64,000 nt of DNA from the NCBI RefSeq assembly GCF_048403405.1, contig NZ_CP183129.1; one strand, 5' to 3'. This stretch comes from Escherichia coli. Its GTDB lineage: Bacteria > Pseudomonadota > Gammaproteobacteria > Enterobacterales > Enterobacteriaceae. A program made the position numbers and the translations under genes. A model generated the notes under the pieces. The model was not told the DNA's origin. It saw only the letters and a list, made by a program, of their open reading frames with translations, and made no database searches. Positions 8,763 to 29,704 of this stretch are shown in pieces (the first letter of the stretch is position 1; each line of letters opens with the position of its first letter).

Positions 8763-9411
8763 ATTTAATACAGCATCTATCGCCGGATGCGATGCTTTGC
8801 GAACGCAGCCTGAGCCTGCATATAAACTTGTCATTTCCTGATTTTGATATGCTCATACCAACATCAGAAGAATGTTAAATTATGGATGACAAACCATTGC
8901 AGGCTCTGGCTAATCAACTCAAAACACCGGCTCAAGAAAGTCAGCATAATGGCTTCTTCTGACTGCAACAGGTGAAGAATAACCAGCCCCGCATTACCGG
9001 TATCCCCGTCAACCATCAGGGGCCCCAGCCTGACATCGCCTGAACATATTCCCCCACGCAACCTGCCGCACTGGCGTAGCCCACACAATAGGCGTTTCAG
9101 ACTGCTCAGTAACTGTAGTGGCGTTTCATCCGCCTGTAGCACCGGATGCATGAGCGATTTCTTATAGTTATTCCTTTGCTTAATAACGATTATTTCCGGG
9201 TCGTTCGCTCTCGTATTTTCTTTAATACGTCAGAGCTGCCTGGGCCGTAATACAGCATGTACCAGACCCGACACGGCATTTCTGACCAAGGGAAAAAGTC
9301 AACGATGAGTCGTTATATCAGCGCAAATGACGTCCTGTGGCACCTTTGCGGTGACCACATTCACGTCTCCGGCGCTGCCAGAGGATATTTATTTCAAGGA
9401 TACGTAGCATT

Positions 9412-10758
9412 ATGGCCAGCATTAAAGACATCCGCCCATTCGCCCCCGGCATTCCCCCATCTTCCGTTAACCCAGGCGTACGCCCACCAGGGCAGTTCTT
9501 CCTGCCGGTGGAACTCAAGAATGAAATTTTGCGGAACATGAAGTATATCGGCCCGCAAATATTTAGCTGGGGTGATGACCACCGGCAGATCATTGACCTC
9601 AGTACCGCGGGCGAAGTGAAAATACATATGGTAGACAATACCATCATCACGTTGGAGCGCCTGAATCCGAATCCGCAACATAACGAGTTCATGATGGTCG
9701 CCGAATGGTGCCAATGGGCTATGGAGCGGGATGGTTTGCAAGAAAACCTGCAAAAAAACCTGTACGAAATCCTGGAAGAAAACCAGCAAAACAAACAGTC
9801 AGAAATTCCCCAAGAAGACCTGAAAGAAAGTCTGGAAGAAATCAAGGAAAATATCCTGGAAGAAAACCTGCCAGCAAGCCGGATTGAAAACCGGGCAGAA
9901 GCATTGCGCAGAATGAAGGAATGTCTCATTACAAGACGGAGTATGCTCAATCTTAGCAACCTGGGATTGACTTCACTCCCTGAAAATTTGCCTCCACATC
10001 TGATTGAATTTTACTGCAGTAAAAACGTGTTGACCGCGTTACCGAAGGTGATGCCAAAGTGGCTGCTGGTGCTTGACTGTACAGATAACATCTTGATCTT
10101 GTTACCGAAGGTGCAGCCCTCAAAACTGATGGTGCTGAATTGCTATGACAACTGTATTATCTGGCTGCCTGAGCTGTCGACTAACCTGAGAGTGATTAAC
10201 TGTTCTGAAAACTTCTTGCAATTTTTACCGCCGTCGATGCCCCAGTACCTGTATAAACTATCCTGTGCCGGCAACAATATTAACTCAATACCTGATGAGA
10301 TGCTGGAGAACTTGACTCGCCTGAAAGTATTTGACTGTTCTAGTAACGATTTGATCTCTGCACCACGGCGGCCGCCCAAACTAATCATATACTACTGTGG
10401 AGAAAACCAGTTTAAAACGGTACCGGTGCCGCAGCCCCGAAGCCTGAAGGTGTTTAGCTGTAATGGTAACCCGTGGGACAAAGACAATTTACCGACGCTG
10501 CTCAAAGCCGTCGAGGGCCTGAAAAACCAGGAGGGTCTGGAGGAGCTTTTGGACTTTTTGCACAAGGAGTGCCAGTTGAAGCTGGAGAAGCTGGAGAAGC
10601 TGGAGGATCTGGATGACCTTATGGTTCTGGAGCTCCTGGATGACCCGGTACTCCTGGAGCGCGTGAAGGTACAGGAGGACCTGGAGCTCCTGAATCAGCA
10701 GTTGGGCCTGTTGAATCTGGAAAGACAACAGGACTCGCAGCCAGTTAATCAACATTGA
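9412..10758 (+). CDS. leucine-rich-repeat protein of the IpaH/SspH/YopM (LPX-repeat) type, no NEL ligase domain; type III effector-like
   Basis: N-terminal region ...ALRRMKECLITRRSMLNLSNLGLTSLPENLPPHL... resembles the IpaH/YopM pre-LRR segment; about ten ~20-residue LxxLPxxLPxxL repeats; Glu/Leu-rich low-complexity tail. Confidence 0.7.
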   Translation: MASIKDIRPFAPGIPPSSVNPGVRPPGQFFLPVELKNEILRNMKYIGPQIFSWGDDHRQIIDLSTAGEVKIHMVDNTIITLERLNPNPQHNEFMMVAEWCQWAMERDGLQENLQKNLYEILEENQQNKQSEIPQEDLKESLEEIKENILEENLPASRIENRAEALRRMKECLITRRSMLNLSNLGLTSLPENLPPHLIEFYCSKNVLTALPKVMPKWLLVLDCTDNILILLPKVQPSKLMVLNCYDNCIIWLPELSTNLRVINCSENFLQFLPPSMPQYLYKLSCAGNNINSIPDEMLENLTRLKVFDCSSNDLISAPRRPPKLIIYYCGENQFKTVPVPQPRSLKVFSCNGNPWDKDNLPTLLKAVEGLKNQEGLEELLDFLHKECQLKLEKLEKLEDLDDLMVLELLDDPVLLERVKVQEDLELLNQQLGLLNLERQQDSQPVNQH

Positions 10759-10822
10759 ATCTGTTTGTAGAGTGTTGGCTTCAATGCCGCATTGTATCTG
10801 GTTTCTTTCTAATGCGGTTTTT

Positions 10823-10847
10823 GATTATGTACACCCTTATGTACACG
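10823..10847. repeat. 25-bp repeat with tandem TGTACAC motifs (left copy); candidate att or arm/operator site
   Basis: gattatgtacacccttatgtacacg matches 29636-29660 (cattatgtacacctctatgtacacg) at 22/25 positions, same orientation. Confidence 0.5.
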
Positions 10848-11219
10848 TTTTTTTAAAGCGTTCAGCAATTACGCTGGTGGATGATCACGGATGGCCTGAT
10901 ATCTACAGCCGCCTTAAAAAGCTGGACCCGACCAGCATTACTGCGTATCGGGTTCGTTCGCTCTTTCTACTCGTGGCAGATGAGTTTATCGGTGTGATTT
11001 TATCGGGCGAGGGTATTGTATCAGGCATCCCCTTTTCTATGCAGATTTGCATAGTTTCGAATGGTGGCGTTATGGAAGCCTCTCATATCAGCATCATGCC
11101 CACCAGCGTGAAGTATTTTTTATTTCGCGGGTGTAAAAATTTGACGAGGCGGCGGTCCCATAAGCAATGGGTTGTAGGGATTTCGATCCCCCCTCCTGAA
11201 TGCAATTTTTCGTATATAT

Positions 11220-27663: not shown

Positions 27664-28314
27664 TTAGTCGAGATCGTGGACAGCTAATAAAGCCCGTGAG
27701 ATTTTTTCTAGGAATGTGGCTTTTGCTATTCCTTTATGGGATATCCCTTCATCCTTGATTAAGGTTTCTATGTCACGGTATATAGCTGTGCGATTAGGTT
27801 TCCCATTTTGGATGTAGGAAGATGAGCCTGATTTTTTTATCAGCAGATGTACTATCAACCCCATCATTTTCATTGTCCCGTTTTCCTCATCCTGCTTTCT
27901 ATGCTGCCCACGTCCGCTGCGGTTGGTTTCTTTGATGTAGTTTACTAACTGGAGTCCTCCAAGGTTTCGGGCTTTTTCTTCCCAGCCCTTGGTGCCACGC
28001 AAATCATCAATCGCTTCTGATATTTTCTGAACAATTATTTCTGGTGTATTTGTGTCAATAAATGGGTAAGAAGCTAAGAAAATATCAAGGGCATGGCAAG
28101 GCTCGTCTTTACTAGTTTTTTCACCTCTGTACACCTTGATAGCTCTGGCAAGATGAGTTCTGACAAAATCGACATATTCGAAATTTTCCTCAGGCACATC
28201 GCTAATGCGCATAGATGGGTTTAGGCCAGCCAAGGCCACAGCCATTTCATGAGGGGTAATCGATACAGATGAACAAAGCCGTTCGATTGGCGATTTTCTC
28301 AAGATGTTGTTCAC
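27664..28314 (-). CDS. hypothetical protein (216 aa) in the int-alpA variable slot
   Basis: ORF overlapping int stop by 4 nt; AT-rich; no recognisable motif. Confidence 0.6.
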   Translation of the reverse strand: MNNILRKSPIERLCSSVSITPHEMAVALAGLNPSMRISDVPEENFEYVDFVRTHLARAIKVYRGEKTSKDEPCHALDIFLASYPFIDTNTPEIIVQKISEAIDDLRGTKGWEEKARNLGGLQLVNYIKETNRSGRGQHRKQDEENGTMKMMGLIVHLLIKKSGSSSYIQNGKPNRTAIYRDIETLIKDEGISHKGIAKATFLEKISRALLAVHDLD

Positions 28315-29579
28315 ATTTGCCTCCGGGCTTTATCGAATGGCGTTACGTTGTAGTCTTTCCCGCTTTCCAGTGCCACCAGCAGATCAGCCCACTGTGCCAG
28401 CGCAGCTTTACGCTCATCAAAATACTGATGGCGGTTATAAATCCCCTCCACACCCTTAATGCGATGATTGAGGCATCGTTCCGCTACGACAGGATCAACA
28501 CCCAATGCTGCTAAATGAGTACGTGCGGTACGCCGGAAGTCGTGAATCGTGAAATTAGGCACATCCGGCATTTCGGCGCGAACCTTAGCCAGTGCTACGG
28601 GTAAAGTGCTTTCCTGAATATGTGGGATCATTCTGTTTTGCATCTTCCTGGCTGGAAGCACCCATGCGCTATTACATGAAAAGGTGTGTAGCTCTCTCAA
28701 CCATTCAACGGCAGGAGAAGGTAGAGGTATATCAATAGGGTCTCCGTTTTTGCTGCGTTCTTCCGGCAAATGCCATACCGCACCATCTAAATCAAACTCT
28801 TCCCATCGTGCGGCGCATAACTCCATCTTACGAACGCATAGTGCCAGCAATAGCTTAAATGTCAGTTCGTTCTGGCGGCTGAATCCTTTTGCGGTGCGCA
28901 TAGCCTCGAATAGCCTGATAAGCTCATCGCGAGTTAGCCAACGGTCGCGGGAAACCTCTTTACCACCAGCATCAGATACTTCAAACGCTGAACAAGGGTT
29001 TATCTCCAGAGCGTGGCGTTTTATCCCATAGTCAAAGATACGGCGTGTCCAGCGTAATACATCTGTTGCTATCGTTGGTGCTCCTCGGTCAACGATACCT
29101 TTCAACATGTCGTCAATGTGGCGTGGCTTAACGTCCTCTACCTTCATATGCCCAATGCAGGGGTTAATATCCTTATCAATTCTCCGGCGAAGGATATCGG
29201 GATGTTTCCATCTCGGAAGTATCTGTCGCTCGAAGTATTCGGCGGCCAGATCTGAAACGCGCATGGCGTTTTTCTCAGCCTCCATTTTTGCCAGTGCTTC
29301 AGCTTTTCGTTCCTGTTTTTCTGCTGCTACGTCATAGCCAAGAGCAACTCTGGCTGACAGCTCTTTTGCTATTTCTCTGGCTTTTGATAGTGACAGTTCG
29401 GAGTAAGAGCCGATAACCATAGCCCGCTGTTTTCCTGCGAGCTTATATCGGAATCGCCAGAACGGGACTGTGTAGTTTTTGGGGTAGCAAATATAAAGGC
29501 CGTTGCCGTCTGCCTTGCCATCAAATCTGTCTCCCGCCTTTATCCATGCGCGGATCTGCATATCTGTGAGTTTTGGCAT
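28311..29579 (-). CDS. int: tyrosine recombinase/integrase, P4-type
   Basis: C-terminal catalytic region ...HDFRRTARTHL...NHRIKGVEGIYNRHQYFDERK...; start taken at MPKLTDMQIRAWIKAG (ORF track extends to 29663). Confidence 0.9.
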   Translation of the reverse strand: MPKLTDMQIRAWIKAGDRFDGKADGNGLYICYPKNYTVPFWRFRYKLAGKQRAMVIGSYSELSLSKAREIAKELSARVALGYDVAAEKQERKAEALAKMEAEKNAMRVSDLAAEYFERQILPRWKHPDILRRRIDKDINPCIGHMKVEDVKPRHIDDMLKGIVDRGAPTIATDVLRWTRRIFDYGIKRHALEINPCSAFEVSDAGGKEVSRDRWLTRDELIRLFEAMRTAKGFSRQNELTFKLLLALCVRKMELCAARWEEFDLDGAVWHLPEERSKNGDPIDIPLPSPAVEWLRELHTFSCNSAWVLPARKMQNRMIPHIQESTLPVALAKVRAEMPDVPNFTIHDFRRTARTHLAALGVDPVVAERCLNHRIKGVEGIYNRHQYFDERKAALAQWADLLVALESGKDYNVTPFDKARRQM

Positions 29580-29635
29580 TGCGAATACCTGAATATCGAA
29601 TATGGGTGTGTACATAAAGCAATGTACATGAAAGT

Positions 29636-29660
29636 CATTATGTACACCTCTATGTACACG
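29636..29660. repeat. 25-bp repeat with TGTACA(C/T) motifs (right copy), upstream of int
   Basis: Four TGTACA(C/T) motifs between 29608 and 29660; 22/25 match to 10823-10847. Confidence 0.5.
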
Positions 29661-29704
29661 CATATTGTGCGCTTTGTTGCGTCGTTATGATAGCTCATGA
29701 TAAC

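Follow-up and report, generated by a model that had tools for sequence, protein, structure and literature searches.

A putative podophage satellite in Escherichia coli with a predicted, exchangeable cassette of epsilon15/phiV10-like ejection proteins

EcCIMP1 is a phage-inducible chromosomal island (PICI) of E. coli MP1 that is moved by the podophage vB_EcoP_Kapi1 (Pick, Stadel and Raivio, ISME J 2025; PMC11773190). Excision and transduction of this island (19,963 bp) occur only with Kapi1 (39,436 bp), its transduction rate is very low, and it affects superinfection by its own helper (PMC11773190). Downstream of its DUF927 rep gene lies a cassette of P22-type ejection genes, whose products are a DUF2824 protein, a protein of 225 aa, a "DNA ejection protein" and an SLT protein of 906 aa; its authors regarded the cassette as possible packaging genes (PMC11773190). 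Here we analyzed a stretch of 64,000 nucleotides from E. coli (assembly GCF_048403405.1, contig NZ_CP183129.1; hereafter the window), in which a mobile element of 19,025 bp occupies positions 10757-29781 between cvrA and dadX. We put the probability at about 60% that this element is a PICI-type satellite with a backbone like those of EcCIMP1 and the capsid-forming PICIs (cf-PICIs), in which the capsid-terminase module has been replaced by an ejection-protein cassette of the genus Uetakevirus. Uetakeviruses would then be its likeliest helpers, and the cassette would have been taken from, and repeatedly exchanged with, temperate podophages of the epsilon15/phiV10 type.

The first-pass annotation of this sequence had left three giant open reading frames (ORFs) of the element unclassified. 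We found that all three are full-length members of PHROG virion-protein families (phrog_1044, phrog_3003 and phrog_684) and that the trio is syntenic with p18, p19 and p20 of phiV10 and with gp15-17 of epsilon15, a phage that is among the podophages listed with internal virion/ejection proteins (PMC8954989). The corresponding DNA has its match in strain ECONIH2, where a complete Uetakevirus prophage at yfgI agrees with it over 7,521 bp with 99.47% identity. The block, 12016-19535, consists of a ribosome-binding site, the three genes, a gene for a 186-aa secreted protein and a terminator, and its edges fall exactly at the limits of complete genes. Judged by their sequences, the three giant ORFs are epsilon15/phiV10-like podophage ejection (internal virion) proteins, whose presence in the virion is predicted. 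The features of the cassette are as follows.

12016-19535, minus strand: phage-derived ejection-protein cassette
16902-19523, minus strand: 873-aa internal virion protein with an SLT lytic transglycosylase domain (phrog_1044)
15203-16900, minus strand: 565-aa middle protein of the trio (phrog_3003), syntenic with phiV10 p19
12654-15206, minus strand: 850-aa internal virion/ejection protein with hydrophobic C-terminal segments (phrog_684, "virion structural protein")
12091-12651, minus strand: 186-aa protein with a signal peptide, last gene of the cassette (phrog_11983), 100% identical to the prophage copy
12060-12077, minus strand: terminator-like hairpin closing the cassette, within the 3' flank kept by all Uetakevirus alleles

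In these podophages and in the ECONIH2 prophage the trio stands directly after the gene for a T7-gp14-family core protein. The trio allele of the window is present in 63 genomes, and both non-satellite loci inspected (in ECONIH2 and GPEC128-620) are complete Uetakevirus prophages. Other alleles occupy the same slot in sister satellites: the trio of L005 is 97.8% identical to that of phiV10, and the trio of L003 is ~78% identical to that of epsilon15. At least two integrases and three cassette alleles were found on one backbone. All alleles, from phages and satellites alike, have in common a 5' flank of 430 bp (~93-94% identity) and a 3' flank of 80 bp (~96-97%). Residues 1-137 of the 873-aa protein are ~95% identical to phiV10 p18, beyond which the two represent different alleles, and the 850-aa protein is 23% identical to p20 over its full length. 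The three giant genes are intact in each annotated copy. Measured against the prophage, 14 non-synonymous and 20 synonymous changes give a ratio of non-synonymous to synonymous change (pN/pS) of 0.21. The slot of the 186-aa gene is a variable "moron" position, which holds a gene for a 46-aa membrane protein in phiV10 and genes for 95-113-aa proteins in other satellite alleles.

A tblastn search with phiV10 markers found only the trio, and the element is flanked by a leucine-rich-repeat (LRR) protein gene and dadX. The first-pass annotation had allowed that the same gene set might lie inside a complete prophage; this is so for the 7.5-kb cassette and not for the element as a whole. Because of the identity to the prophage, the other Uetakevirus alleles in the same slot and the flanks common to all of them, what had been regarded as an uninterpretable second half of the element can be read, from its sequence relationships, as a swappable ejection-protein cassette common to one phage genus. 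The genes for single-stranded DNA-binding protein (SSB) and ProQ, which had been assigned to that half, belong to the PICI/cf-PICI backbone.

The remainder of the element corresponds to the satellite-type control and replication half that had been recognized earlier: the integrase, the 216-aa ORF, alpA, the Rha and AntA/AntB regulators, the small genes, rep, SSB and ProQ/FinO are all present as listed at first, and as a set they match the backbones of known satellites. Apart from two small genes, the whole backbone is encoded on the minus strand.

28311-29579, minus strand: P4-type tyrosine integrase (phrog_1, 3.8e-64; an identical protein in RefSeq is annotated as tyrosine recombinase)
27664-28314, minus strand: 216-aa protein, function unassigned (phrog_30524; no defence-system match)
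26974-27192, minus strand: 72-aa AlpA-type helix-turn-helix regulator/excisionase near int (weak match to phrog_66, E 3.4e-07)
25465-26899, minus strand: AntA/AntB antirepressor and Rha-family regulator (Ant 60% identical to EcCIMP1 Ant)
24844-25296, plus strand: two divergent 65-aa genes, the first of the YlcI/YnfO family
23880-24770, minus strand: DUF4222 protein, 85-aa protein and Icd-like protein
21757-23883, minus strand: 708-aa DUF927 replicative helicase/initiator, rep (Pfam DUF927)
21600-21735: iteron origin, directly 3' of the rep gene
21124-21546, minus strand: SSB
20590-21087, minus strand: ProQ/FinO-family RNA-binding protein
19959-20184, minus strand, approximate coordinates: PerC-family regulator pseudogene (from the RefSeq annotation of a 99.9%-identical copy and of relatives)
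19620-19826, minus strand: 68-aa conserved backbone protein (phrog_4934)
11225-11385: second iteron cluster, with three copies of GCGGGTTAY and three of ATAACCCGCAA at 21-bp spacing around an AT-rich stretch

The rep product had been called a primase/helicase. Pfam shows DUF927 only, with no primase or TOPRIM domain detected, and the match to phrog_1139 spans profile positions 136-894, the N-terminal part of that primase family being missing. The protein also weakly resembles the Cch helicase of SCCmec. The iteron origin directly 3' of rep was confirmed as four direct and two inverted copies of TTGCGGGTTA at 21607-21733. The second iteron cluster lies ~10 kb from the rep-side one, with three direct and three inverted copies of a 10-11-bp repeat, and it may be the true origin or an additional one. 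PADLOC, run on ten accessory proteins, found no defence system; its one result was a weak PDC-S22 match in Ant. No terminase, portal, capsid, tail or sid/psu/delta gene was found among the ORFs of the element, in agreement with what had been noted at the outset.

We next compared the element with EcCIMP1. Both have the gene order int, alpA, AntA/AntB, DUF4222, Icd-like, DUF927 rep and a podophage ejection block with a large SLT protein, both carry a PerC-family gene, and identity between the two is 62% for Rep and 60% for Ant. Each is about half the length of its helper (19.0/39.1 kb = 0.49 for a candidate helper of the phiV10 type; 19.96/39.4 kb = 0.51 for EcCIMP1). The two cassettes also have a pattern in common, with a 5' end close to the phage version and a divergent or swappable remainder; between EcCIMP1 and Kapi1, identity falls from 83% and 58% in the 5' part to 26% and 24% beyond it. 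However, the cassette of EcCIMP1 is of the P22/Lederbergvirus kind (analogues of gp14, gp7, gp20 and gp16), in contrast to the Uetakevirus proteins of 873, 565 and 850 aa here. The integrases are only 28% identical, the attachment (att) site is at tRNA-Thr for EcCIMP1 and at yicC for the element, the rep of the element is without the TOPRIM part, and the element has SSB, ProQ and an ORF that holds a P1 pac-like site, all of which EcCIMP1 lacks. No similarity between the two was found at the DNA level. Furthermore, mobilisation of EcCIMP1 by a podophage was shown experimentally, whereas the element is known here from its sequence. The PerC-like gene of EcCIMP1 is intact and is a repressor of LEE, the locus of enterocyte effacement; that of the element is annotated as frameshifted in all of the family copies looked at (L001, L003, L004, L005).

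The nearest other relatives of the rep protein, at 84-89% identity, are found in cf-PICIs, where genes for the major capsid protein (MCP), protease, portal, HNH protein and the small and large terminase subunits (TerS and TerL) come next. The cf-PICIs, reportedly described by Alqurainy et al. in 2023, have in common with the element the rep-SSB-ProQ arrangement and the Icd-like and DUF4222 genes, but where they carry their own MCP/protease/portal/HNH/TerS/TerL module, the element has a 138-aa ORF (ORF138), the PerC pseudogene, the 68-aa gene and the ejection cassette. P4-like satellites resemble it in their P4-type integrase, alpA, Icd-like gene and self-encoded helicase replication; unlike them, it has no psu, delta, sid or epsilon gene and no P4 alpha primase-helicase. 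Finally, the Uetakeviruses (epsilon15, phiV10, ZX5 and the ECONIH2 prophage at yfgI) are linked to it by the 7.5-kb block (99.5% identical for ECONIH2) with its 5' and 3' flanks, whereas the terminase, portal, capsid, tail, tailspike, lysis, lambdoid replication and gp14-family genes of these phages are missing from it.

The five-part marker set of PMC10085698 defines the core components of a PICI. The element has an integrase, an alpA module and a replication module with adjacent origin; no ORF matches a capsid-morphogenesis gene, and of a small terminase subunit only a 62-residue fragment of PacA is present. With three of the five components it is therefore Type C by the criteria of SatelliteFinder. 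Thus, although the first-pass annotation could not place the element in any described family, its EcCIMP1 architecture and its cf-PICI-type rep identify it as a variant of a recently described kind of satellite. The literature searched holds no link of PICIs with ejection proteins, nor of satellites with the P1 pac site. Three aspects are undescribed there: podophage satellites that carry helper ejectosome genes as an exchangeable cassette, a lineage on a cf-PICI backbone in which the capsid module is replaced, and a mimic of the P1 pac site in a satellite lineage. Two more distant relatives of rep in IMG/VR have genes for SLT proteins of 671-676 aa (phrog_7694 and phrog_2276) downstream of rep (L084, 12640-14670; L088, 16966-18981), which may represent further kinds of delivery-protein cargo in satellites.

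How such a satellite would spread can be outlined by analogy with EcCIMP1 and other Gram-negative PICIs. Lytic growth of the helper would turn on alpA, the integrase would excise the element, and the DUF927 helicase together with SSB would replicate it from the iteron origin. Read-through of the operon into the cassette would then load satellite-encoded ejection proteins into capsids built by the helper, where the conserved N-terminus of the 873-aa protein may dock on conserved helper parts. With a length of 19.0 kb against 39.1 kb for the phiV10 genome (a ratio of 0.49), about two copies of the element would fill each helper head. For P22, the ejection-protein allele decides sensitivity to exclusion by prophage SieA, and changes or swaps escape it (PMC10461980); a private ejectosome allele could therefore, by analogy, deliver satellite DNA into cells that exclude the allele of the helper. 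Satellite and candidate helper meet in strain GPEC128-620 (NZ_CM160072.1), which carries a complete Uetakevirus prophage at yfgI (2643098-2684098) with an endosialidase tailspike and the window-type trio allele, and a satellite of the family at dinD-yicC (4046661-4066784) with an epsilon15-like allele. Strain VTB96815v (NZ_CP178648) likewise appears in the match lists of both the satellite and the prophage.

Several observations weigh against the assignment to podophage helpers. The element does not carry the gp14-family core protein gene, after which the trio stands in the phages. Among the 80 relatives found by an IMG/VR scan with rep, the trio is present in only 3, and co-residence of satellite and Uetakevirus is limited, among the matches listed, to two genomes, one of them verified. 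No Uetakevirus pac site or other helper DNA was recognizable outside the cassette, and the non-cassette DNA has no 15-mer in common with phiV10; with the ECONIH2 prophage and with Kapi1 it has one isolated run of 15-16 bases each, which is about the chance expectation, and a single 13-mer in common near TerS genes is likewise at chance level. The sole packaging-like signal seen is of the P1 type, and P1 is a myovirus with no need for podophage ejection proteins. Moreover, given the near-identity of the cassette to prophages, recurrent gene conversion, and not selection in the satellite, could be what has preserved its intact ORFs. In the window copy the attL core is short by 2 bp and attL and attR are unlike in the overlap region, so that this copy may excise poorly. 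For this element, induction, excision and packaging are predicted steps of a satellite cycle. On the packaging strategy of Uetakeviruses no statement was found in the papers searched.

The packaging-like signal lies in ORF138, between the ProQ/FinO gene and the PerC pseudogene.

20193-20609, minus strand: ORF138, N-terminal half an in-frame PacA fragment, C-terminal half Ant-like
~20437-20592, minus strand: P1 pac-like site, 81-85% identical over 156 bp to P1-family pac

The N-terminal half of ORF138 is 63% identical to residues 68-129 of P1 PacA, and its C-terminal half (20193-20400) aligns with the N-terminal region of phrog_63, an anti-repressor family, while Pfam gave nothing significant for this ORF. 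By sequence, ORF138 is a fusion of a PacA fragment with an Ant fragment that has been kept across the satellite family. Within the phage collection the pac-like stretch matches P1-family pac alone. It resembles P1 pac in the central region, where it spans the annotated integration host factor (IHF) site and all four P1 cleavage positions, in the flanking TGATC(A/G) hexamers and in the pacA reading frame; it differs in having 2+2 intact hexamers instead of 4+3, in retaining only PacA residues 68-129, in the Ant-like fusion and in the absence of pacB. A tblastn search of all element proteins against P1 positions 1-47,500 and 90,500-93,300, a range outside which the immI region (c4-icd-ant) lies, gave the PacA fragment, a weak match to an SLT domain and nothing else. 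A P1-like terminase in Uetakeviruses that would use the pac-like site was considered and rejected: PacB is 24% identical to phiV10 TerL, and PacA has no similarity to phiV10 TerS.

These findings bear on the possibility that P1-like phage-plasmids package the satellite, with PacA/PacB cutting the pac-like site in ORF138 and filling heads with concatemers of the element or, if it is not excised, with adjoining chromosome; the podophage cassette would in that case have no part in packaging. We regard this as unlikely, though with a real chance of being correct, and it is compatible with podophage helpers if the element has two types of helper. It would account for the retention of the site in all family members (in L004 one right-hand TGATCG is changed to TGATCA, still within the TGATC(A/G) consensus), for its position as the densest TGATCR cluster of the window, with no comparable cluster in phiV10, the ECONIH2 prophage or EcCIMP1, and for the similarity at both the DNA and the in-frame protein level. 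Suitable helpers are also common, P1-like plasmids with pacA being present in ~550 of 5,426 complete genomes (~10%). However, the reduced number of intact hexamers counts against it; according to work attributed to Sternberg and to Skorupski, hexamer loss reportedly reduces pac cleavage sharply. All copies of the site stem from a single captured lineage (at least 95% identical, 44 genomes), which offers no comparative test, and beyond pac there is no kinship with P1 in the range searched except for the weak SLT-domain match. A wider proposal, that podophage satellites form a class in which a swappable "ejectosome cassette" stands in for the customary module for capsid remodelling or terminase, re-arms helper-built heads and permits entry into cells closed to the helper's allele, helper lysogens among them, and that the present lineage has in addition captured P1 pac and could be packaged by a second type of helper, we hold to be possible but unlikely as a whole.

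A doubtful alternative is that the cassette acts as DNA rather than through its proteins. Its 7.5 kb of homology to the helper would lead to recombination into helper concatemers, headful packaging and loop-out in the recipient, and the intact ORFs would be a by-product of steady gene conversion from helpers. The cassettes are indeed 97.8-99.5% identical to circulating Uetakevirus alleles, their conserved flanks are possible recombination anchors, the element holds no helper pac site or terminase gene, and phiV10 encodes a RecE/RecT-type recombinase; the very low transduction rate of EcCIMP1, whose identity to its helper is restricted to 81% over ~600 bp, would fit as well. On the other hand, EcCIMP1 has large ejection proteins with no more than 24-26% identity to their counterparts in its proven helper, yet they are intact, and conserved in at least 22 strains, which argues for a function of the proteins. 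The different alleles in the satellite and the prophage of GPEC128-620 and the coincidence of the cassette limits with complete genes likewise count against this alternative.

We then examined the locus and the mobility of the element.

9412-10758, plus strand: LRR-protein gene, chromosomal target outside the element, intact in the empty site of strain GN02461
10749-10763: attL junction, TCAACATT joined to GAATCTG; identity to the empty site stops at 10756 and identity to the yicC copies begins at 10757
29761-29790: attR junction, TTATTCGATATTCT joined to GAACATG; right end ~29781

The cvrA gene ends at 8762, and dadX lies at 30039-31109 on the minus strand. Relative to K-12, 20,980 bp (8821-29800) stand in place of an 88-bp IS1414 remnant between the two genes. 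An insertion of ~21 kb at this position, as first proposed, is therefore correct with respect to K-12, but the ends of the element were off by ~2 kb: the insert is a composite of a native spacer variant and the mobile element. Of 5,426 complete E. coli genomes, at least 834 have the native islet (8780-10756) with the LRR gene free of the element, so that 8821-10756 is a common native form of the cvrA-dadX spacer. GN02461, with its empty site, matches the flanks at 100% identity and encodes the full LRR protein of 478 aa. Since the element sits 92 nt before the stop codon of the LRR gene, the protein of the window is cut to 448 aa, with a loss of ~30 codons. The LRR gene, initially taken for effector-like cargo, is thus chromosomal target DNA; its product is of the LPX type with a coiled-coil tail of LEKLE repeats (islet 8821-10758). 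No complete genome of the collection has the element at the LRR site. A tRNA scan of the window found no tRNA gene, so the att site here is not a tRNA, and Rfam found no RNA family inside the element and no C4-type antisense RNA. The sole Rfam match in the 64 kb is the C0299 small RNA at 39281-39359 (minus strand, 111.9 bits), which is unrelated to the element.

Copies of the element that are 99.9% identical (19.05 kb) lie between dinD and yicC, at the yicC 3' end, in 2 genomes, and the same backbone occurs at dinD-yicC in ~40 further genomes; the family was found in 44 of 5,426 complete E. coli genomes. Comparison of the junctions yielded the att identity block TTATTCRATRTTCTGAATCTG, which at yicC is the native 3' end of the gene. 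The LRR site agrees with this block at 16 of 21 positions, TTCTGAA included, and is therefore a secondary site. The attR cores are intact in the four copies compared, while the attL core (TTCTGAA) is intact in L003 (about 3985-4010), lacks 2 bp in the window and in L004 (about 3995-4020), and lacks 7 bp in L001 (about 5990-6010); these differences could be scars of failed excision, lock-in mutations or attP variants. A relative with a different integrase adjoins a tRNA-Gly gene. Thus, with near-identical copies at yicC and in the LRR gene and with clean junctions, the integrative element proposed at the outset is a discrete unit of 19 kb that has recently moved between att sites.

This mobility bears on a quite improbable alternative, namely that illegitimate recombination joined a PICI to a prophage fragment and that the resulting chimera is now a decaying, immobile remnant without a satellite cycle. 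The Type C composition, without capsid-morphogenesis or TerS gene, the frameshift in PerC in all copies, the attL core deletions in 3 of the 4 copies and the rarity of the family would be expected of such a remnant. They are countered by the 99.9%-identical copies at different att sites, by the three cassette alleles and two or more integrases on one backbone, by the intactness of all genes besides PerC, and by the closest architectural analogue, EcCIMP1, being functional. That the element is instead an integrative mobilisable element moved by conjugation is highly improbable: SSB, ProQ/FinO and the SLT domain are common in plasmid leading or transfer regions, but the SLT domain here sits in a full-length internal virion protein of phages, the cf-PICI backbone includes SSB and ProQ, and the PHROG, NCBIfam and RefSeq results, which included no search aimed at a relaxase or oriT, hold no annotation of a relaxase, coupling protein or type IV secretion system.

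The survey with SatelliteFinder set aside more than 6,000 "Type C" PICI-like islands without known hijacking modules. The element and EcCIMP1 suggest that one group of these carries the ejection proteins of podophage helpers instead. If satellites of epsilon15/phiV10-like podophages do load such proteins into particles, this would be a new manner of manipulating a helper, which acts on the apparatus of DNA delivery and not on capsid size or terminase specificity, and it would tie the spread of satellites to the arms race that surrounds superinfection exclusion. If active, the pac-like site would provide a second packaging route and a possible start of directional transduction of the adjoining chromosome. 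Because the alleles differ and natural strains hold both a satellite and a candidate helper, the idea is directly testable, and the satellite and the Uetakevirus prophage of GPEC128-620, with their different alleles, form a natural experimental pair.

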